Notes: generated by a model not told the origin, from the letters alone. A stretch of 64,000 nt of DNA from Gammaproteobacteria bacterium (GCA_963662545.2 CAXXLL010000002.1:2272001-2336000); one strand, 5' to 3'. Shown: positions 2,986 through 59,593, numbered from the stretch's first letter. A program made the numbers and translations.

Positions 2986-4443
2986 TCAAACACGGTCGTA
3001 TTTGTCCTCGAAACGAACAATGTCATCCTCCCCTAGATAAGATCCCGACTGCACCTCAATCATCTCCAGCAAAATCGGTCCGCGATTTTCGAGCCGATGC
3101 TTTTCCCCGATAGGAATGTAAATTGATTCGTTCTCCGAGAGCAGAAACGTCTCATCGCCCCGCGTAACCGTCGCGGTCCCCGCAACTACGATCCAGTGCT
3201 CTGCGCGGTGACGGTGCAATTGCAGTGAAAGCGCGGCACCCGAATTAACGGTGATACGCTTGACCTGGAATCGCGGCCCCGCATCGATATTCTCATAGCT
3301 GCCCCAAGGCCGGTACACCCTTCGATGAGTCAGCTGCTCCACGCGATTCTGTCGAGAAAGCCAGTCGACGATACTTTTCACGTCCTGGGTACGGGTTTTG
3401 TCGGCCACCATTACTGAATCCGCGGTCTCCACCACCACCAAATTCTCGCAACCGATCGTCGCGACCAATCGGTGCTCGGCAAAGACGAGACTATCCTTAG
3501 AGTCAATTACGCAGACATCACCACGGATCACGTTGCCGTTAACATCCTTGGCTGACACGTCCCAAAGACTCGACCACGAGCCGACGTCGGTCCAGCCGAC
3601 GTCGAGCACGACCACCGCGGCATTCCCACCCGCCGCAGCCAGCGGCTCCATGACAGCATAGTCGATGGAATCGCTCGGGCAATTGGCAAATGCCTCCACT
3701 TCGAGTCTGAAGAACTCTCCGTCTTCGCGCGCCGCGTCGGTAGCGGCACTCGCGTAACGCGCAATGTCGGGGCAGTAATGTTCGGCTTGCGCCAGCCACA
3801 CTGACGCTTTCATCGCGAAGATCCCGCCATTCCAGAGGTAGCCGCCCGCGTTTAGGTAGCTTTGCGCGGTGGCTTCGTCCGGTTTCTCCCGAAAACTGCG
3901 CAGCGCGTAAACGGCCGCACCGTCACCGGATTCCAGAGCATCTCCGACCTCGATGTAACCGTAGCCCACCTCCGCATGTGTCGGGACCACGCCGAACATT
4001 ACAATGCGCCCAGCGATGGCCTCTGCGAGCGCGGCGCGGGCTGTGATATTGAACGCGGCGCGGTCTTTGATCAGATGATCCGCCGGCATCATCAACAGCA
4101 CGGGATCCTCGCCCTGCCGCACCGCGCGCCGCGCCGCGGAGGTCAGTGCGGGCGCAGTATTGCGGCCCTCGGGTTCGAGCATTATGGTCGCAGGCAGGCA
4201 GCCAACCTGCCGGGCCTGCTCGGCGACCAGAAAGCGATGCTCTTCGTTGCAGACCACAACCGGCGCCTCGACCCGCATATCTCCGGTATCCTCGAGCCGC
4301 GTAAGGGTTTGTTGCAGCAGCGACTCATTGCCACCCAATGCGAGGAACTGCTTCGGGTAGTACCCGCGGGATAGCGGCCACAAACGCGTGCCGCCACCGC
4401 CCGCGAGAACCACGGGCCAGATCGCGATCGTGGGATGATTCAT
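2986..4443 (-). CDS. manC: Mannose-1-phosphate guanylyltransferase / mannose-6-phosphate isomerase
   Basis: VVLAGGGGTRLWPLSR..PKQF, EPEGRNTAPA, SIDYAVME and C-terminal cupin RPWGSY..HRAEHW. Confidence 0.95.
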   Translation of the reverse strand: MNHPTIAIWPVVLAGGGGTRLWPLSRGYYPKQFLALGGNESLLQQTLTRLEDTGDMRVEAPVVVCNEEHRFLVAEQARQVGCLPATIMLEPEGRNTAPALTSAARRAVRQGEDPVLLMMPADHLIKDRAAFNITARAALAEAIAGRIVMFGVVPTHAEVGYGYIEVGDALESGDGAAVYALRSFREKPDEATAQSYLNAGGYLWNGGIFAMKASVWLAQAEHYCPDIARYASAATDAAREDGEFFRLEVEAFANCPSDSIDYAVMEPLAAAGGNAAVVVLDVGWTDVGSWSSLWDVSAKDVNGNVIRGDVCVIDSKDSLVFAEHRLVATIGCENLVVVETADSVMVADKTRTQDVKSIVDWLSRQNRVEQLTHRRVYRPWGSYENIDAGPRFQVKRITVNSGAALSLQLHRHRAEHWIVVAGTATVTRGDETFLLSENESIYIPIGEKHRLENRGPILLEMIEVQSGSYLGEDDIVRFEDKYDRV

Positions 4444-5117
4444 CGCCTGAATTCCTACTCGATTCGGGACACTGACATTACTATGGCTGCCAGATCAACT
4501 CTGGCATGTCCCGTAACCTGGCCATGTCACTGATATGCTATCAGCCTGCTATTCCGTTAGATATGTGTCCCCCTCTTGAGGGATCTTCGGGGAACTATGG
4601 TGTTTCTAAATTTCATACCTGGATATCTCGTTGGATTTTATTAAAGGTGTTTCTAATTCTTTACGGGTCGTCCTGAACCCGCGATGGCGTAAACGATTTC
4701 CAATAAGGCGAACGAACTGCGGACCAAGACATCGCCCGTTATCGACGAACGTTGGCGTCACATTTACTGATCTTAGCCGCGCAAAGATCGATACGGTCAT
4801 CGTCTCATATCCCGGTCGCCACACGATGATTAGGGAGCTAATTAACAGGCAGTGAAACCGTAGAACTTCTATAAAACGCGCCAGCCGGCATCGCACAGTT
4901 GAAAGCGGCCATTAGACGAGCACGAAAATTTGAAAACCAGTCTATCAAGCAAGCCCCTATCATGGATTTTTTGGCATCCCCACCAGCGATTATGGAATTG
5001 GACATTAGTTGAAGCTATACGAAGCGTAGTACCAATCTCGCCAATCAATAAATTACTTGTCAGATTAGTAGTCTTAATCGATTCCGCTCTTCTTGTTATT
5101 CACGCCTTATTACTTGT

Positions 5118-6820
5118 CTAGTGTGCATCCCTAAACGCGATGCGGTTGAAATAAAAAGGAAAATTTGTCGCTTAAGGGATCGAAACCTCCGGTAGGTCGT
5201 GATCTAATGGAACTTCAAACCTCTGATTTTCCACACAATCATCGACACCACAGGAGGGGGAATGCGTCAGAAACGCACGGCCCAAGCGAGTATATACGAG
5301 CTGTTTGCTGACCATGACCTGGGGCGAGAGCTGCAGGGCATGTCCGAGTGGCTCGATGCTCACCCCAAGGTCCTCACGCCGGTCATGAACGATCTGTGTC
5401 GGCGGGGTTTGAAGCCCACCGGTCGACGCGGACTGTCGGCGGAGTCGGTGCTGCGCTGCGCGGTGCTCAAGCAGCACCGGCAATTGAGTTACGAGGAGCT
5501 GGCCTTTCACCTGCAGGACTCGGCGAGCTTTCAGGCCTTCGCCCGGTTGCCGGGTAATGAACGTCCGAAGAAGTCTGCCTTACAGCGGGTGGTCTCGGCG
5601 ATCCAGGTATCGACGTGGGAGTCTATTCATCGCGCCCTGCTGGCGACGGCGAAAGAGACGCGCATTGAGCCGGCACAGCGTGTACGGATTGATAGCACGG
5701 TAACGGACAGTGCCATCCACGCGCCGAGCGACAGTCATCTGCTGTGGGATGGCGTGCGTGTTGTGGTTCGTCTGCTCGCACAGGCGCGCGAGTTGCCTGG
5801 CGCGCCGGAGTTGTGCTTCGTGAACCACACTCGATTGGCGAAGAAGCGTGCGCGGGCGCTGTGGTATGCGCGTGGTGCGAAGCAACGCCAACGTCTGTAT
5901 CGCGATTTGATTGGGGCGACGCGTTCAACCTTGGAAGCGGTAGCGAGGGTACGTGAGCAGCTGCTGAGCCCGGGCGTCACCGGCGTTGAACTGCCGGACT
6001 GGCTAGCGCAGGTAGCGCACTACGAAACACTTGTTCTGCAGGTGATTTCGCAAACTGAGCGGCGGGTGTTCGGCGGTGAGAAGGTCCCCGCGAGCGAGAA
6101 GTGCGTGAGCTTGTTCGAGCCGCATACCGACATCATCATAAAGGGTGCGCGCGACGTTCAGTACGGACACAAAATCAATCTGGCTTCGGGGCGCAGTGGC
6201 CTCATCCTCGACGTGGTCATCGAGCGAGGCAATCCGGTCGATAGTCAGCGCTTCATGCCGATGCTCGAACGGCATCGAACACACTACGGGACGATGCCAC
6301 GACAGGTCGCCGCCGATGGCGGCTATGCGAGCCTCGACAATCTCCGGGCGGCGAAAGCAGAAGGCATCGAAGACGTTGCCTTCCACAAGAAGCGCGGGCT
6401 CGCGATCGCCGACATGGTCAAGAGTCAGTGGGTCTATCGACGCTTGCGCAACTTCCGCGCCGGCATCGAGGCCGGTATCTCCTGCCTGAAGCGTGCATAC
6501 GGATTGGCACGTTGCACCTGGAAGAGCCTGCCGCACTTCGAAGCCTACGTGTGGTCTTCTGTGGTCGCCTACAACCTCAGCCTGCTCGCGCGCTATCAAC
6601 TCGAATAGCGACGTTCACTCGCACTAACTGACCTCCTCGATATCGTCGAACGGGCGACTTTGGGTTGCAGCGCTCTGCGGCCGGCGAACGTACTCACAAT
6701 TACGCTCGAAGAGCCCTTCGACCCCCACCGAACCGCCGCTACCGCTCCAACAACCTACTTTCAACACCTCGATTTCTCCGTGCCCATCGAAGAAAATGCC
6801 TGTTTATGGACGGACACTAG
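5118..6820 (+). mobile_element. ISNCY-family insertion sequence, copy 1
   Basis: Terminal IRs CTAGTGTGCATCCCTAAAC / GTTTATGGACGGACACTAG (16/19 match). Apparently identical to 52371-54073. Confidence 0.92.
5262..6608 (+). CDS. ISNCY-family (IS4/IS5-like DDE) transposase
   Basis: RIDSTV, AADGGY and RAGIEAGISCLKR motifs. RBS AGGAGG upstream. Confidence 0.92.
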   Translation: MRQKRTAQASIYELFADHDLGRELQGMSEWLDAHPKVLTPVMNDLCRRGLKPTGRRGLSAESVLRCAVLKQHRQLSYEELAFHLQDSASFQAFARLPGNERPKKSALQRVVSAIQVSTWESIHRALLATAKETRIEPAQRVRIDSTVTDSAIHAPSDSHLLWDGVRVVVRLLAQARELPGAPELCFVNHTRLAKKRARALWYARGAKQRQRLYRDLIGATRSTLEAVARVREQLLSPGVTGVELPDWLAQVAHYETLVLQVISQTERRVFGGEKVPASEKCVSLFEPHTDIIIKGARDVQYGHKINLASGRSGLILDVVIERGNPVDSQRFMPMLERHRTHYGTMPRQVAADGGYASLDNLRAAKAEGIEDVAFHKKRGLAIADMVKSQWVYRRLRNFRAGIEAGISCLKRAYGLARCTWKSLPHFEAYVWSSVVAYNLSLLARYQLE

Positions 6821-55424: not shown

Positions 55425-55494
55425 GCGCAGTCGGTCTAAGTCCACTGCGCTCCTCCCTTTGGTCCTTTACGGGTGCATTCGCACCCGTTTTTTT
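55425..55494 (+). ncRNA. Candidate small regulatory RNA (~70 nt)
   Basis: Starts at the predicted sigma54 +1. 5' hairpin GCGCAGT/ACTGCGC, single-stranded TCCTCCCTTT, terminator ACGGGTGC-ATTC-GCACCCGT-T6. Confidence 0.65.
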
Positions 55495-55555
55495 ACGCGA
55501 GTATGTACCTGAGTAAACCCTAGAAACAGGGCATTTTTGCGTCAAACAGCCGCCG

Positions 55556-55726
55556 TTACTCGTCGTCGTCTGACTTTTTCTTGTCGGAATCGGGCCAGCC
55601 GTCAGAAGGGCGTGGCTTCTTCAATGCCTCGCTTACGGCATCCTTCCAGTCACCATTGATCTTTACGCGTTCCTCTTTTGGGCCGCGCTTCGATATTTTT
55701 CCCGACTGATCTTTTTTTACTACCAT
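55556..55726 (-). CDS. Small basic/acidic protein (56 aa), passenger of the IS1595 element
   Basis: Read manually: MVVKKDQSGKISKRGPKEERVKINGDWKDAVSEALKKPRPSDGWPDSDKKKSDDDE. Below the ORF-track cutoff. Confidence 0.65.
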   Translation of the reverse strand: MVVKKDQSGKISKRGPKEERVKINGDWKDAVSEALKKPRPSDGWPDSDKKKSDDDE

Positions 55727-55791
55727 ATGTTGAGATCTGCAGTAAGAGCGTTTACTATCTCGTAGTAGTTAGTTTACTACATAGCAGTGAT

Positions 55792-56616
55792 ATGGCCAAA
55801 ATCAAAGCAGTGGACGAGTCCGGAGGCGCAAAATCAAAGCGGCGCGCGCGGCAGCGTTCTGGCACTGCGTTTCCCTACTATGGGCTCAGTCAATCCGTAG
55901 AGGTCGCGAACAAAATACGATCTCAAGGAGGGGGCGTATGTAGCCGTGACCAACTTGCACATTTCCTGAATTATTCTACTACTCGTAGCGGGGCTTACCT
56001 AACTCGGATGAGCGCCGCTAAGATGTTTGGCCTGATCTCGATGTCCGGAGAAACCGTGTCCATAACGGAGCGAGCGCAAAAAATTCTCGTCCCGGTACTT
56101 CCGTCAGACTCGAACGATGCCAAAATAGAAGCATTCCTGGCTGTGGAGCTTTTCCGCCGAGTTTACGATGATTTTTATGGCAAGAAACTGCCGCCGAAAG
56201 TTGGCACCAAAAACCTTTTCGAGAACATATACAAAATTACGCCCGACAAGATCCAGACAGCTTTACGCGCATTTTACGACTCTGCGGAGTTCGCAGGGTT
56301 TTTCCCGGATAACGGCAAAACGCGGCTTATTAAGCCCATCACAGCGGTAGAGCCCGGGACTTTAGAGCCAAAAGATGCCGTTGATGATGACCCTGGTACA
56401 GACCCGCCGGCAGATCCTCCTCCGGATAAACGAAAGCATGGCGGCAGTGGTAGTGGCGAGGGTCCACCGCCCGGTATACATACGGCAATAGTCGGTCTGC
56501 TACGCGAACTTCCGCCGGCCGGGTCCGATTGGCCCGCCACCAAGAAAGAACGATTTATGCAGGCATTCAGGGCGACTATTGATTTCATCTACCCGGAACA
56601 GGAGGAGCTACAATGA
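55792..56616 (+). CDS. Hypothetical protein, winged-helix-like N-terminus, Pro-rich linker (possibly DUF5343-related)
   Basis: 274-aa ORF with SRDQLAHFLNYSTTRSGAYLTRMSAAKMFGLI helix-turn-helix-wing pattern and C-terminal IHTAIVGLLRELPP..WP. Confidence 0.75.
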   Translation: MAKIKAVDESGGAKSKRRARQRSGTAFPYYGLSQSVEVANKIRSQGGGVCSRDQLAHFLNYSTTRSGAYLTRMSAAKMFGLISMSGETVSITERAQKILVPVLPSDSNDAKIEAFLAVELFRRVYDDFYGKKLPPKVGTKNLFENIYKITPDKIQTALRAFYDSAEFAGFFPDNGKTRLIKPITAVEPGTLEPKDAVDDDPGTDPPADPPPDKRKHGGSGSGEGPPPGIHTAIVGLLRELPPAGSDWPATKKERFMQAFRATIDFIYPEQEELQ

Positions 56617-56715
56617 GGAGGGTTTAAGGGCTGGCTCGGCGGCCCGGTCCAAGCGTCAGCGGTGGTTCAACTTGTGAGAAGCTTGCCACCGCTGACGGCC
56701 CGGGACTACATCCAT

Positions 56716-56816
56716 GCGGACGTGGTGGAATTGGCAGACACGCCGACTTTGGGGGTCGGTGGGGGTTGATCCTTTGACCAGGGGACCCCGTGCAGGTTCG
56801 AGTCCTGTCGTCCGTA
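56716..56816 (+). tRNA. Atypical tRNA: Leu-type body, TGG (Pro) anticodon, 32-nt variable region
   Basis: GCGGACG/CGTCCGT acceptor, D arm GTG-GAATTGGCAGA-CAC, anticodon arm CCGAC-TTTGGGG-GTCGG, T arm GCAGG-TTCGAGT-CCTGT, A73. An alternative 9-bp acceptor model spans 56714-56821 and ends in ACCA. Confidence 0.85.
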
Positions 56817-56854
56817 TACCATTAATCCGCTGCTGAAAGCTTGGCAGAAAAACG

Positions 56855-57856
56855 TCAGCCAAGCAATCGCCGAACCATCGGCAGATTAGTCGATACTGGT
56901 TCAGCATAGTAAAGCCGCTTCCCATTTGATGCCTTGATAGCCGCCGTAACCCTCTCTCCATCCTCAAGCTCGCGGCGGTTGAACCGAAATTCGAACTCAG
57001 CCATGTAGCGGTGCAGATGCTTACGGCTGACACTGTGATAGACGCCATTCAGACCGCGCTTGAAGATGCTGAAAAAGCCTTCTACCCGGTTCGTGGTTAC
57101 GTCGCCCCTGGCGTACTCGCGGGCCTTATGCTTCACCGTTTCGTGACCGCCCTTGAATTCCGCACCGATACCCCGATAACCACTGTGTTCATCGGTCATA
57201 ATCCGGGAATCGGGATGGACATGCTCCCGGATAGCGGCCTTTAACGTCTTACCAGTCACATCGGGTATAACCCTAGTGCGGACTTCGCCGCCACGTTGAA
57301 CCAGGGCGACGACGGGCTGTTTGTCGCCATGGCCCCGCTTGCTCTTACCTTTGTATCGGGGCTTTCCCCCAACGAAAGTTTCATCGACTTCAACGTCGCC
57401 GTTCAACTGGCCGTCATACGCTGGTGCCATAGCGAACCGGATACGGTGCAGCAGGAATAGGGCTGACTTGTAGGAAATTCCAGTCTGGCGGTGAATCTCA
57501 AGGGCCGACACGCCTTTCTTGGACGTGGCTGCACGCCAGAACCCGAAGCACCAATGACGCAGTTCAATCCGGCTGTCCTCAAACACGGTGCCGGTGCGGA
57601 CAGTGAATTGCGCTGTAAACTTAGCTCGCGCACAATCCCGGCAGCGCCAGCGAAAGTTCTTTTGCCGTGCGCCAGTCTTGTTATCTTGCATCTGGTAGAC
57701 ATTTTCGCTACCGCAACGGGGGCAGCAAGGATTCTCGCCCCAACGCTGCTTCTCTATGAACTCAACCGCAGCCTTCTCGTCGGCGCAGGCTTTTGGAACA
57801 GCCTTGATTACTGGGTCGTTCTTGGTGGAGCGGTTTTGAACTTTTGGCTTACTCAT
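56855..57856 (-). CDS. IS1595-family transposase
   Basis: Zinc ribbon CPRCGS..WRCRDC, FTVRTGTVFE, VEVDETFVGG, IMTDE..GY, TTNRVEGFFS, HLHRYMAEFEFRFN. Confidence 0.95.
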   Translation of the reverse strand: MSKPKVQNRSTKNDPVIKAVPKACADEKAAVEFIEKQRWGENPCCPRCGSENVYQMQDNKTGARQKNFRWRCRDCARAKFTAQFTVRTGTVFEDSRIELRHWCFGFWRAATSKKGVSALEIHRQTGISYKSALFLLHRIRFAMAPAYDGQLNGDVEVDETFVGGKPRYKGKSKRGHGDKQPVVALVQRGGEVRTRVIPDVTGKTLKAAIREHVHPDSRIMTDEHSGYRGIGAEFKGGHETVKHKAREYARGDVTTNRVEGFFSIFKRGLNGVYHSVSRKHLHRYMAEFEFRFNRRELEDGERVTAAIKASNGKRLYYAEPVSTNLPMVRRLLG

Positions 57857-57862
57857 ACATCA

Positions 57863-57891
57863 ATTGTATATACAAATTATCCTTTCGTCAA
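57863..57891 (-). promoter_or_regulatory. sigma70 promoter of leaderless transposase, overlapped by TGTATATACA palindrome
   Basis: Minus strand TTGACG-17 bp-TACAAT-6 nt-ATG. Confidence 0.7.
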
Positions 57892-58040
57892 GTATAAAGT
57901 TAATTACTATGTGCTTGTCGCTAAAGGGCGGTATCGCCGATCTGCAACAAATTTTTACATATATTGTTCCTTTTTAGTCTATATTTTGTATATACAGGGA
58001 TGTAGAATGTTGCGGAAATGACCTCAAGGATGTATATGCA

Positions 58041-58334
58041 TTGCCGCTAGAGATTAGTAACGGAGTACGTCGAAAGCTCGCCAGTAAAGAGCCGCCAGTC
58101 ACGGAGGCTGAAATTGTCGAATGCTTCGCGAATAGATTGAGTAAATACCTCTATGACGTTCGGGAGGATAACAAAACTAACCCGCCCACCAGATGGTTTG
58201 TTGCTGAGACAGATTATGGAAGAAAGCTCAAAGTTGTGTTCATGAGCATTGGGGACAATATCGTGATCAAAACAGCTTTTGAACCAAATCCTGATGAAAT
58301 ACGTATATACAACAAGTTCAGCCAGCCTACTTAG
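58041..58334 (+). CDS. Putative type II toxin (BrnT/DUF4258-like)
   Basis: 97 aa, VTEAEIVECF, RWFVAETDYGRKLKVVF..IVIKTAF. Upstream of an RHH antitoxin. Confidence 0.7.
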   Translation: MPLEISNGVRRKLASKEPPVTEAEIVECFANRLSKYLYDVREDNKTNPPTRWFVAETDYGRKLKVVFMSIGDNIVIKTAFEPNPDEIRIYNKFSQPT

Positions 58335-58357
58335 TAATCTCGGAGAGAGAGAACCAC

Positions 58358-58708
58358 ATGAATGAAACCACGAAAATTGAATCAACTGAGGAAGCATGGG
58401 AGTCCGGACAGCTCGGGCGCGACGAAGCTTACGCTCACGTTTTCGAGAATGAACAAGAAGACGCACTCGATAAAGCTCTAGAACTCCAAATGATCTCCAT
58501 ACGACTTCAAAAATCTCTCATAGAAGATTTCAAGCTAATTGCCAAATTGCATGGCCTTGGGTATCAGCCGCTCATGCGTCAGATATTGACGCGGTTTGCC
58601 GATTGCGAGAAAAAGCTACTTCTTAAAAAGTTCGTAGCTGACCAAGAAAAAATGGAGGCAGCGGAGCAATTGACCGATAATGAGGAACCAATTGCCTCAC
58701 ACGGATAG
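58358..58708 (+). CDS. CopG/BrnA-like ribbon-helix-helix antitoxin
   Basis: Acidic N-terminus (TEEAWE), then MISIRLQKSLIEDFKLIAKLHGLGYQPLMRQIL. Confidence 0.8.
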   Translation: MNETTKIESTEEAWESGQLGRDEAYAHVFENEQEDALDKALELQMISIRLQKSLIEDFKLIAKLHGLGYQPLMRQILTRFADCEKKLLLKKFVADQEKMEAAEQLTDNEEPIASHG

Positions 58709-58727
58709 CCTCAAACGATTTCAATAT

Positions 58728-58752
58728 AAACCCGCTTCGGCGGGTTTTTTTT
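58728..58752 (+). terminator. Intrinsic terminator
   Basis: AAACCCGC-TTCG-GCGGGTTTTTTT. Confidence 0.85.
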
Positions 58753-58804
58753 CACCGCCAGAAACCCGTCATAAGGGTTTACTCAAGTACATACTTCCGT
58801 TTTT

Positions 58805-59593
58805 TTACAAACCCGCTTTTTTCGCCGCCTCCCACAAGCGGTCCAACCACTCGAGATCCGCAGACCCGGGCGACGAGCCCTGCGCCCGCAGTTCGGCCTC
58901 CACGTGCCTGAACCGCCGTTCGAATTTCCGGTTCGCGGCACGTAAAGCGGCCTCCGGATCACAACCGAGGTGGCGTGCGACGTTAACCATCGCAAACAGC
59001 AAGTCGCCTAATTCTTCGTGGATCGCAGCGACGTTCGACTGCCCCATGGCGTCCTCGAGTTCCGCGGTTTCTTCGCCAAGCTTAGCCCAGGGGCCAGCCA
59101 CATCCGGCCAGTCAAACCCGACCCTGGCGGCCCGCTTCTGCAGCTTTAGGGCGCGCGTGAGCGCGGGGAAATTGACGGGCACCTCGTCGAGTTCGCTGAA
59201 CGTATCGCGATCGCGCCGGGACGCGCGCTCCGTCGCCTTCTGCATTTCCCACTGTTTGGCAACGGCCGTCGCATCGCTTGCGCCACCGTCCTCGAATACG
59301 TGGGGATGCCGTCTCAAGAGCTTCCGCTCCAATTCGCCTATTACCTCGTCGATTGAGAAACGGCCCTCCTCCTCGGCTAACTGGCAATAGAAAATGACCT
59401 GAAACAGAAGATCGCCTAATTCCGAGGGTAACTCCTCCAGACGCCCGGATTCGATGACGTCCGCCACCTCGAAAGCCTCTTCCAAGGTATGCGCTACGAT
59501 CGATTTAAACGTCTGTTCCCGGTCCCAGGGACAGCCGCCATCGGGCGCGCGCAATGCCCGCATCAGGTCACGCAGTGTTTGGAGATTCGACAT
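58805..59593 (-). CDS. mazG: Nucleoside triphosphate pyrophosphohydrolase
   Basis: LRAPDGGCPWDREQT, EEAFEV, ELGDLLFQV, RRHPHVF, GFDW, second EELGDLLF. Confidence 0.96.
   Translation of the reverse strand: MSNLQTLRDLMRALRAPDGGCPWDREQTFKSIVAHTLEEAFEVADVIESGRLEELPSELGDLLFQVIFYCQLAEEEGRFSIDEVIGELERKLLRRHPHVFEDGGASDATAVAKQWEMQKATERASRRDRDTFSELDEVPVNFPALTRALKLQKRAARVGFDWPDVAGPWAKLGEETAELEDAMGQSNVAAIHEELGDLLFAMVNVARHLGCDPEAALRAANRKFERRFRHVEAELRAQGSSPGSADLEWLDRLWEAAKKAGL

Follow-up and report, generated by a model that had tools for sequence, protein, structure and literature searches.

A clade of IS1595-family transporter elements with a conserved microprotein and a leucine-type tRNA bearing a proline anticodon

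The 64,000-nucleotide stretch of gammaproteobacterial DNA analyzed here (GCA_963662545.2, CAXXLL010000002.1:2272001-2336000; termed the window, with positions counted from its first letter) contains an intact IS1595-family element of 3,304 bp between its target-site duplications, which encodes, in addition to its transposase, a class II tRNA with a leucine-type body and the proline anticodon UGG, a short basic protein (the microprotein), a winged helix-turn-helix protein and a candidate toxin-antitoxin pair. Comparison with its relatives shows that it belongs to a clade unified by CGGAAGTATGTACTT-type ends, AT-rich 8-bp duplications and a three-part core composed of the transposase, the microprotein and the tRNA. 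The usual view of an insertion sequence is of a transposase and its ends, to which passengers are added now and then at random. In the present case an entire transposase clade keeps a tRNA whose body and anticodon are mismatched together with an unannotated microprotein. A literature search, with subscription papers and supplementary files outside its reach, found no description of a tRNA or of the present microprotein as conserved parts of insertion sequences. The explanation that we favor for the whole, with slightly more confidence than doubt, is that an anticodon-switched leucine-type tRNA, predicted to read CCN codons, forms part of a regulated mobile-element core.

The element is bounded by two exact copies of the 8-bp target-site duplication TTTTTTTA (55488-55495 and 58800-58807), immediately inside of which lie the left (55496-55521, + strand, beginning CGCGAGTATGTACC, as against the clade consensus core CGGAAGTATGTACTT) and the right (58774-58799, - strand, beginning CGGAAGTATGTACTT when read inward) terminal inverted repeats. 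Direct reading gives identity between the two repeats at 23 of 26 positions, and a repeat search on the window returned arms of 27 nt at 89%. The exact direct repeat found here is 12 nt long (CCGTTTTTTTAC), exceeding the 8-bp duplication because 3+1 flanking bases agree by chance. An earlier reading of the DNA made without database comparisons (the sequence-only reading) had described this same architecture, with 26-bp inverted repeats matching at 23 of 26 positions, an 8-bp duplication, a span of 3304 bp and a central transposase gene of 1,002 bp, and all of these are where it had placed them.

The insertion point is the T-tract of an intrinsic-terminator-like hairpin of the host (stem 55469-55488), in which the left copy of the duplication lies. 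The unoccupied site that the sequence-only reading had expected to find among relatives exists in the same-genus genome G002, where matches to the left (89% identical) and right (91% identical) flanks abut. On direct reading, the empty site consists of the terminator stem, ten T, one A and the right flank, the T-run of 10 comparing with 7 T in a single duplication copy of the window (T7A, the element, T7A). The perfect duplication, taken together with the empty site in a relative, shows that the element moved recently, as the sequence-only reading had proposed for what it took to be an IS1595 transporter element. A contig from an RNA library (run X1, 55450-55662) crosses the left junction; the same insertion therefore exists in that sample. 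The element is present in one copy in its own genome (5.58 Mb, three contigs searched), and its GC content is 51%, compared to 58% for the genome. A plasmid search found no near-identical element DNA, the plasmids of PLSDB containing only transposase relatives below 41% identity.

The transposase (56855-57856, - strand, 333 aa, encoded by a centrally placed open reading frame of 1,002 bp) combines an N-terminal zinc ribbon with a DDE domain, with matches to PF12762 DDE_Tnp_IS1595 (3.5e-44), PF12760 Zn_ribbon_IS1595 (1.9e-10) and NCBIfam NF033547 (6.6e-59). Residues D158, D222 and E259 are invariant across 15 aligned sequences and probably constitute the catalytic triad. A sigma-70-like promoter match (57863-57891, - strand; 10/12, a consensus match only) is situated directly upstream of the start of the gene. 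The zinc-ribbon DDE transposase, the terminal inverted repeats and the 8-bp duplication together place the element within the IS1595 family.

Relatives were gathered in three sets. A transposase search of species-representative genomes yielded 13 loci (54-88% identity) from Gammaproteobacteria, Lysobacterales, Nevskiaceae, Pseudohongiella, Planctomycetales/Pirellulales, Phycisphaerae and Gemmatimonadales; scans with the transposase alignment yielded 80 loci on metagenome contigs (35-67% identity); and a scan of viral contigs yielded a further 80 (38-68% identity). A quick IQ-TREE search on 90 transposases (4 of 94 having been left out as shorter than 270 aa) places all 26 sequences that are at least 52% identical to that of the window on one side of a single branch (SH-aLRT 99). 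The clade set used below comprises the window and L016-L041 (27 loci: the window, 13 genome loci and 13 metagenome loci), and the comparison set comprises L042-L108 (67 loci, with transposases at most 50% identical). The phyletic pattern of the clade extends over Pseudomonadota, Planctomycetota and Gemmatimonadota, and over soil and water metagenomes and viral contigs. A related element in a second same-genus genome, G001 (L005, L016), has a transposase 88-90% identical and a microprotein 76% identical to those of the window, a different 177-aa open reading frame, and a tRNA scoring 50.8 bits with the same UGG anticodon.

The motif CGGAAGTATGTACTT, with up to 3 mismatches allowed, is found inverted on both sides of the transposase gene in relatives. 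Perfect 8/8 duplications, with flanks read by eye, bound 16 elements: that of the window and those of L017, L019, L022, L024, L025, L027, L028, L029, L033, L036, L040, L117, L121, L122 and L118 (L119, which has an identical element and flanks, being counted once with the last of these). The duplication is 7/8 in L026 and L039, and none is present in L116. Since both the 15-nt end motif and the 8-bp duplications recur in relatives, the ends recognized in the window exceed what chance would give. Elements of the clade range from 2,128 to 4,566 bp, and their duplications are mostly AT-rich.

The tRNA gene of the window (56716-56816, + strand) specifies a class II molecule with a leucine-type body (A73, A14, A15, G18G19), the anticodon UGG, a 32-nt variable region, a G1-U72 wobble pair and no in-register CCA. 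It scores 45.8 bits against Rfam RF00005 (gathering score 29); ARAGORN called no tRNA anywhere in the window. In the related loci ARAGORN calls tRNA-Pro(tgg) in 9 of 14, namely those with shorter variable arms, and Rfam returns 8 tRNA matches that exceed the gathering score across the 13 related genome loci, four of which are the elements' own copies. A census combining Rfam, ARAGORN and a covariance model built on 12 copies recovered a tRNA with a proline anticodon, adjoining the transposase gene or inside the ends, in 22 of the 27 clade loci (21 with UGG, and one, L017, with AGG), 19 of these being class II (84-104 nt) and three (L023, L031, L037) short and class I-like. L032 instead has tRNAs with GUC and AGU anticodons, and no tRNA was found inside the element in L030, L036, L039 and L041, even with the model filters off, the contig of L030 stopping 660 nt past the gene. 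Outside the clade, any tRNA within 1 kb was found in only 4 of 67 distant loci: L051 (UGG), L054 (AGG), L073 (UUA and UCG) and L095 (UAU). On viral contigs, a class II UGG tRNA accompanies 5 of the 9 loci with transposases at least 52% identical (L116, L117, L121, L122, L138), none being found in the clade loci L118/L119, L120 and L137; among the more distant viral loci, a Leu-like class II tRNA lies within 1.5 kb in 6 of 71, with anticodons read by eye as UGG (L126, L136), AGG (L131), UGC (L123), GGA (L146) and UGU (L195). The sequence-only reading had conceded that random cargo with no recurrence of the tRNA, or cargo occurring in relatives without the inverted repeats or the transposase, would tell against it; the tRNA recurs strongly, and cargo of that kind was not encountered.

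In every locus where both ends and a tRNA could be recognized, the tRNA lies inside the ends. Its placement relative to the transposase gene varies, being upstream on the same strand, downstream and convergent, or 1.3 kb away. Across 19 loci, among which kin are not independent, distances between tRNAs with the variable region removed correlate with those between transposases (Mantel r 0.30, a value attained by 2 of 2000 permutations), which fits joint inheritance of the two. L036 and L118/L119 contain no tRNA match inside their ends, with filters off, together with intact ends and perfect duplications, and L039 likewise has none inside ends flanked by its imperfect duplication. The tRNA is thus not required in cis for transposition, as tRNA-less relatives have duplications too.

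Structural comparison using RNAalifold on 12 copies recovers 24 pairs, 22 of which show compensatory double changes, in a consensus cloverleaf with 7 acceptor pairs and 5 T-stem pairs; the acceptor stems are almost wholly different between lineages, yet still paired. Positions U8, G9, A14, A15, G18 and G19, two D-loop A residues, parts of the T-loop, the A following position 20 and the anticodon U34, G35, G36 are invariant across the aligned copies. Most relatives have G1-C72 in place of the G1-U72 of the window, A73 is present in 18 of 19 copies, C2-G71 in 12 of 12, and U (position 48) closes the variable region in 19 of 20 copies with a proline anticodon. The mean D-arm identity to host tRNAs is highest for leucine (0.83), followed by serine and proline (0.63 each) and tyrosine (0.52). 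The host genome itself, with 50 ARAGORN tRNA calls, has canonical tRNA-Pro genes with UGG, CGG and GGG anticodons, all with C1-G72 and short variable loops.

According to the accessible part of PMC9976931, leucine identity in E. coli depends on A73, A15-U48, G18G19, A20a and the D/T-loop tertiary contacts, the anticodon and the sequence of the long arm not being needed; C2-G71 blocks SerRS; and proline identity depends on G72, G35, G36, A73 and G15-C48. The element tRNA holds every listed leucine determinant, and its anticodon is not one of leucine (NAG or YAA). Of the proline determinants it has G35, G36 and A73, whereas G72, G15-C48 and the short class I variable loop are missing. Given that the leucine determinants are present and the anticodon is dispensable for them, LeuRS should charge the tRNA whatever its anticodon; ProRS may also accept it to some degree through G35 and G36. 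One copy alone, that of L038, has a proline-type acceptor stem with C1-G72, and this keeps the proline reading alive. Distant elements have Leu-like or Ser-like class II bodies with the anticodons GUC, UUA, UGC, GGA, UGU, UAU and CGC, which would fit a family of anticodon-switched tRNAs built on two scaffolds whose synthetases are blind to the anticodon; the exceptions to this rule are a few tRNAs of class I-like form in the same elements.

Several unusual tRNA sequences were also noted. The 30-33-nt variable arms of the window (56760-56791), L016 and L022 fit, by eye, a kink-turn pattern of a stem, a 3-nt bulge, G-A, a short stem, a loop, a short stem, G-A and a stem, both stems being compensatory between copies; other long variable arms (L017, L021, L038) have a 4-nt bulge on the 3' side instead. 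The element of the viral contig L116, for which no target duplication was seen, has a UGG tRNA of 116 nt whose variable arm measures about 45 nt (4993-5108) and a second odd tRNA with a Ser-like body and the alanine anticodon CGC (6261-6348). In L155, a 184-nt match to the tRNA model (5149-5332), 2.5 kb from an IS1595 transposase, has tRNA-like acceptor, D and T arms with about 100 nt inserted after the anticodon region. Two ARAGORN calls in the host, a 90-nt 'tRNA-Glu' with a misplaced anticodon (G000:C2:142495-142584) and a 95-nt 'tRNA-???' (G000:C3:2603809-2603903), appear from their sequences to be false positives.

The second conserved component of the core, the microprotein (55556-55726, - strand), is a basic protein of 56 aa whose gene reads outward to the left end. 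Its family, recovered in 12 of 14 elements by all-against-all BLAST of internal open reading frames, is defined by the motif G-P-K/E-x-E/D-x-x-K-I/L-x-x-x-W-x-x-A/L-x-x-x-A-L/V-x-K-x-R/K-P-x-x-G-W-P, or, in condensed form, GPKxE..K(I/L)..(D/N/K)W..A..AL.K.(R/K)P..GWP. A hidden Markov model (HMM) of the family detects members of 42-59 aa in 21 of the 27 clade loci versus 0 of 67 other metagenome loci, and in 8 of 9 viral clade loci versus 0 of 71 others. Pairwise differences at the three codon positions among 18 gapless copies (0.34, 0.22 and 0.60) show the pattern of a coding frame, and in every case the gene is 60-230 nt away from one of the ends, with outward orientation. The microprotein matches no family in Pfam or NCBIfam, and a word-index search returned only the microprotein itself; a HMMER scan of 1.84 billion 50%-identity cluster representatives recovered 694 relatives at E<=0.001, of which the best 150 are, with one exception, 38-123 aa long. 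In P0289 (349 aa) the motif forms a C-terminal tail (residues 309-343) after a sequence that is protease-like by eye, so that the motif may exist as a portable module and not solely as a peptide on its own. The microprotein occurs in 5 of 401 sampled genomes of the class to which the window belongs, the window's own genome and G319 (unpublished) included. A complex prediction for the microprotein with the transposase gave a score of 0.00, which is no verdict and counts neither way. A second, partial motif is present elsewhere in the host genome (G000:C3:2955927-2956013; L114, about 1500-1590), aligning with 29 of the 49 positions in the profile (E 3.5e-10) and identical at 77% of nucleotides across 100 nt; it adjoins a 380-aa open reading frame that resembles an IS630-type transposase by eye, with no tRNA or IS1595 gene nearby, and is probably the stump of an older element.

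Most elements of the clade also have a winged-helix gene, which in the window (55792-56616, + strand) encodes a winged helix-turn-helix protein of 274 aa. This protein has 68 homologs, all devoid of Pfam domains and unnamed or labeled 'hypothetical', and no Pfam or NCBIfam family matches it. An AlphaFold2 model built from 46 sequences (mean pLDDT 85.8) displays an N-terminal winged helix (helices 32-46, 52-58 and 67-78; strands 82-85 and 88-91), followed by a helical domain, a disordered linker at about 190-225 and two C-terminal helices. Compared with the PDB by Foldseek, the model has no match at E<=0.001 and only weak winged-helix matches, the RNA-binding ROQ domain among them, and a search of the Atlas returned only unnamed clusters, one 'Mrr-like N-terminal' label and DUF5343 at 0.87. 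The modeled fold suggests that the protein is likely to be a regulator. Homologs of the 274-aa type are present in L021 (32% identity) and L017, and L027 has a DUF5343-like protein at this place (2.5e-5). In L016, L022, L024-L026 and L118 a coiled-coil protein of 130-180 aa, with a HARE-HTH-like domain (1.2e-3) at its C-terminus, takes the position; it is treated as equivalent in position only, an hhalign comparison having detected no relationship between the two types (probability 0.6%); L019, L020 and L028 have no winged-helix gene and a Gp49/XRE pair in its place.

The genes for the winged-helix protein, the tRNA and the microprotein are always clustered, in several arrangements, around a short divergent or tandem control region. 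In the window, a promoter search found a sigma-70-like site (55730-55758, + strand; 9/12, again a consensus match only) upstream of the winged-helix gene, in the stretch separating it from the divergent microprotein gene, and none for the tRNA. The spacer separating the tRNA from the winged-helix gene (56617-56715), which folds at -47.9 kcal/mol (z -2.97), contains a perfect 12-bp hairpin (56654-56697, + strand), recognized by repeat search and folding, with no T-run after it.

The remaining genes of the element behave as passengers. The toxin candidate (58041-58334, + strand, 97 aa, with a TTG start) is a divergent protein that resembles BrnT (DUF497): some of its 73 homologs are named DUF497 by their source, and 10 of 27 aligned homologs match Pfam BrnT_toxin PF04365 (best 1.4e-9), the window copy itself having no Pfam match at 0.01 and the family no match in a PDB profile search. 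The CopG/BrnA-like antitoxin candidate (58358-58708, + strand, 116 aa) begins 23 nt after it and matches CopG_antitoxin PF12441 with E 2.9e-4 and 22 bits, under the 28-bit cut-off; an intrinsic-terminator-like hairpin with a T-run (58728-58747, + strand), itself the terminator part of weak small-RNA matches, follows. The equivalent slots in relatives contain a Gp49/HigB-like protein with an XRE regulator (L018-L020, L028), a Fic protein (L028), a SocA/Panacea antitoxin with a partner (L025, L026), a dCTP-deaminase-like protein (L024), an NYN protein matching HEC-09 of PADLOC (L021, 2.2e-46) and a match to the PADLOC candidate PDC-S42 (L027, 3.8e-68), showing that one or two variable slots hold toxin-antitoxin or defense-type passengers. 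The element of L017 (2,384 bp) has only the transposase, tRNA, winged-helix and microprotein genes, without a toxin-antitoxin pair, and that of L121 (2,128 bp), with a transposase, tRNA and microprotein, is too small for much cargo. Because the passengers vary while the tRNA of the core stays, the toxin-antitoxin pair is a passenger specific to its lineage rather than a partner of the tRNA. The Rfam score, the BrnT matches of homologs, the CopG match and the AlphaFold model bear out the inventory given by the sequence-only reading, which consisted of a microprotein, a winged-helix protein, a tRNA-like gene and a toxin-antitoxin pair, but its suggestion of a toxin plus an atypical tRNA as one functional combination is not supported as it stands, the pair being swappable and replaced by other modules in relatives.

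Parts of the element were also detected in three metatranscriptome runs of one study and in one further run guessed to be RNA. The contigs (55450-55662, 55773-56324, 56473-56813, 56700-56910, 56591-56832, 58027-58471 and 58517-58726) cover the microprotein, winged-helix, tRNA and toxin-antitoxin genes, and one of them (56473-56813) connects the final part of the winged-helix gene with the tRNA, stopping 3 nt short of A73. No contig of these four runs lies over 56911-58026, in the transposase gene, an uncovered part that is not in itself a finding.

We accordingly picture the system as follows. The tRNA would be a working tRNA rather than a relic, charged through its leucine-type body by the bacterial LeuRS, which is blind to the anticodon. 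The leucine-charged UGG tRNA would read CCN codons and bring about low-level decoding of proline codons as leucine, with some charging by ProRS through G35 and G36 being possible. It would probably be made from the transcript of the winged-helix gene or from the common divergent control region, and would probably be regulated by the winged-helix protein; the benefit to the element could lie in manipulation of the host, in addiction, or in mistranslation linked to stress or defense. A number of points weigh against this picture. We infer the amino acid carried from identity rules worked out in E. coli, and proteome-wide decoding of proline codons as leucine should be costly. Many metagenome contigs are short, so that absences are soft in every group of loci, and the contigs from the RNA runs are assembled and indicate presence in a library, which cannot prove transcription, processing or charging. 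Most allo-tRNA-UAU species, irregular tRNAs considered further below, proved inactive in E. coli, as reported in the available text of PMC5389517. The remaining points against it are those that lend weight to one or other of the alternatives that follow.

Chief among these is the plainer possibility that the gene is an extra tRNA-Pro, charged by ProRS through G35, G36 and A73, which supplies CCA/CCU decoding for AT-richer mobile genes, much as phage tRNAs are thought to supply codons in hosts of differing codon usage. These three residues, strong ProRS determinants in the account of proline identity cited above, are all present, A73 in nearly every copy; UGG, or AGG in L017, L054 and L131, is kept in every proline-type copy, position 34 being U or A and always inside the proline box; the acceptor stem of L038 is of the proline type; and the element is AT-richer than the genome, with CCA as 5 of the 12 proline codons of the transposase versus 10% genome-wide, as plain codon supply would have it, in what are small counts. 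The leucine-type body, with A15-U48, a Leu-like D arm and a class II arm and without the strong proline determinants G72 and G15-C48, argues against it, however, as does the presence of three canonical tRNA-Pro genes in the host, UGG among them; and like bodies with Asp, Ala, Thr, Ser, Ile and ochre anticodons in related elements would be left unexplained by codon supply. On balance we regard this alternative as unlikely, though not negligible, and place at the same level the proposal that the gene yields a tRNA-shaped RNA outside translation, a regulatory or structural RNA of the element such as a ligand bound either by the winged-helix protein or by the microprotein, a processing signal for RNase P/Z that shapes neighboring mRNAs, or the RNA partner of an addiction module. 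Variable regions of 30-45 nt, exceeding those of every host tRNA, in 8 genome and metagenome copies and in L116 and L126, three of them kink-turn-like by eye, would suit such a role, as would C33 in place of U33 in two relatives, the G1-U72 pair and lack of an in-register CCA in the window copy, the constant clustering with the winged-helix and microprotein genes in changing orientations, and the ROQ domain among the weak fold matches of the winged-helix protein. Set against this, an invariant anticodon, a 7-nt loop and all of the nucleotides for tertiary interactions are the features kept by selection for translation, and the changing position relative to the transposase gene argues against a processing role in cis.

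Less probable than either, and doubtful in our view, is a bolder version of the leucine interpretation in which the winged-helix gene, the leucine-bodied tRNA(UGG) and the microprotein form a module whose mistranslating tRNA is a regulated 'RNA toxin' corrupting proline decoding in the service of addiction or abortive infection. If true, this would explain the clade as a preferred vehicle for toxin-antitoxin and defense cargo across phyla; in a milder form, the module would be a natural, horizontally spreading device for ambiguous decoding of proline codons as leucine. Very little probability attaches to the idea that the toxin-antitoxin pair and the atypical tRNA form one self-stabilizing or phage-defense unit specific to this cargo: the BrnT matches of the toxin homologs, the CopG-type partner and the PDC-S42, HEC-09 and dCTP-deaminase-like genes of relatives speak for it, but nearly every relative has a different passenger whereas the tRNA is kept, L017 and L121 do without a comparable load, and none of the three window proteins tested matches a PADLOC model. 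Most strongly disfavored, and hardly credible to us, is a captured host tRNA-Leu pseudogene that acquired its anticodon by chance mutation and hitch-hikes without function. A single A35G change would indeed convert a leucine NAG anticodon to NGG, the window copy has its small defects at G1-U72 and the displaced CCA, and the tRNA has been lost in some members of the clade; yet compensatory changes at 22 of 24 pairs around a fixed anticodon, across loci of Pseudomonadota, Planctomycetota and Gemmatimonadota, the presence of the tRNA in 22 of the 27 clade loci and again in 5 of the 9 on viral contigs, and the correlated distances of tRNA and transposase are hard to reconcile with a functionless passenger.

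With respect to known mobile elements, Siguier, Gagnevin and Chandler are said to have described in 2009 a group of transporter insertion sequences (tIS) within the IS1595 family, the ISNha5 group. The ISNha5 subgroup has ends beginning CGG, a length of over about 3.4 kb and passengers that include a transcription regulator. The element of the window resembles the group in its zinc-ribbon DDE transposase, CGG-type inverted repeats (CGC/CGG in the window), AT-rich 8-bp duplication, length above 3 kb (3,304 bp) and regulator-like passenger, the winged-helix gene. It differs in that no mention of a conserved tRNA or microprotein was found for the group, for which the accessible part of a 2025 review records a transcription-regulator passenger in ISNha5.

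As for tRNAs on mobile DNA, phages and mobile elements carry tRNA genes for codon supply or for replacing cleaved host tRNAs, and the clade is similar in bringing along its own tRNA on an element AT-richer than the host. In those cases, however, body and anticodon match, whereas here a leucine body with a proline anticodon rides on a DDE insertion sequence of 2-4 kb. The closest described case is that of the irregular allo-tRNAs near toxin-antitoxin systems, for which Mukai et al. 2017 (PMC5389517, in the text available) suggested a link to transposable elements, one of them overlapping a 'transposon-related protein'; the suggestion is repeated in the accessible part of a 2020 review. The element tRNA resembles these in its class II type, its anticodon mismatched to its identity and its proximity to toxin-antitoxin and transposon genes, and L095 and L151 have Ser-like UAU tRNAs beside IS1595 transposases. 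Allo-tRNAs, as described there, have 8/4 or 9/3 acceptor/T-stem geometry and mostly serine identity, in contrast to the 7/5 geometry, leucine-type body and fixed proline anticodon seen here, and in the available portions of that work, supplementary figures aside, no insertion-sequence family, ends, duplications or conserved partner genes are described.

The proposed mechanism also has parallels in a yeast tRNA-Ser with a UGG anticodon (PMC6827378) and in human tRNA-Leu variants (PMC11028032), which mistranslate according to the parts of these studies available: the synthetase ignores the anticodon, so that a changed anticodon inserts the wrong amino acid. Those variants are engineered or rare eukaryotic alleles, whereas the element tRNA belongs to a mobile element of bacteria and has been conserved across deep divergence, its charging with leucine being a prediction from sequence. 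The passenger pair of the window resembles BrnT/BrnA (PF04365, PF12441) in the pairing of a small toxin gene, whose homologs match BrnT_toxin, with a CopG-type antitoxin gene 23 nt on, and differs in that the toxin is under every Pfam threshold and the antitoxin under its gathering score, the two therefore being considered candidates.

If the tRNA is charged with leucine, the clade would be a natural and mobile source of deliberate mistranslation of proline codons as leucine in bacteria; if it is charged with proline, the leucine-type scaffold would be re-assignable in nature; and if it acts outside translation, it would be a DDE transposon component of a new kind, an RNA derived from a tRNA. 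The clade gives a genomic context, in the form of ends, duplications and partner genes, to irregular tRNAs near toxin-antitoxin systems, and appears to be a compact natural vehicle for defense and toxin-antitoxin genes.

Some further observations concern the wider set of IS1595 elements. A search for a recoding role in an alignment of 26 clade and 64 other transposases showed no convincing column with a conserved proline in place of leucine, apart from one weak column at the C-terminus, and repair of a transposase proline codon by the tRNA is therefore not supported. Distant IS1595 elements (among L042-L108 and L123-L195; e.g. L058, L060, L067, L098, L100, L108) have the same end motif as the clade and are 1.8-3.3 kb long, and must therefore carry passengers too, without the tRNA or the microprotein. 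In L016 the far side of the related element (3003-4913, equivalent to 2829-3743 of L005), where its second end was not found, abuts a further IS1595 transposase, an unrelated one (42% identical), and an open reading frame of 331 aa that is protease-like. On the viral contig L118 (also L119), a gene recognized as helicase-like from GxGKT and DExH motifs by eye (3318-3899 and 6346-6804) is split by the 2,450-bp tRNA-less member of the clade, which is flanked by the duplication AAATATTT.

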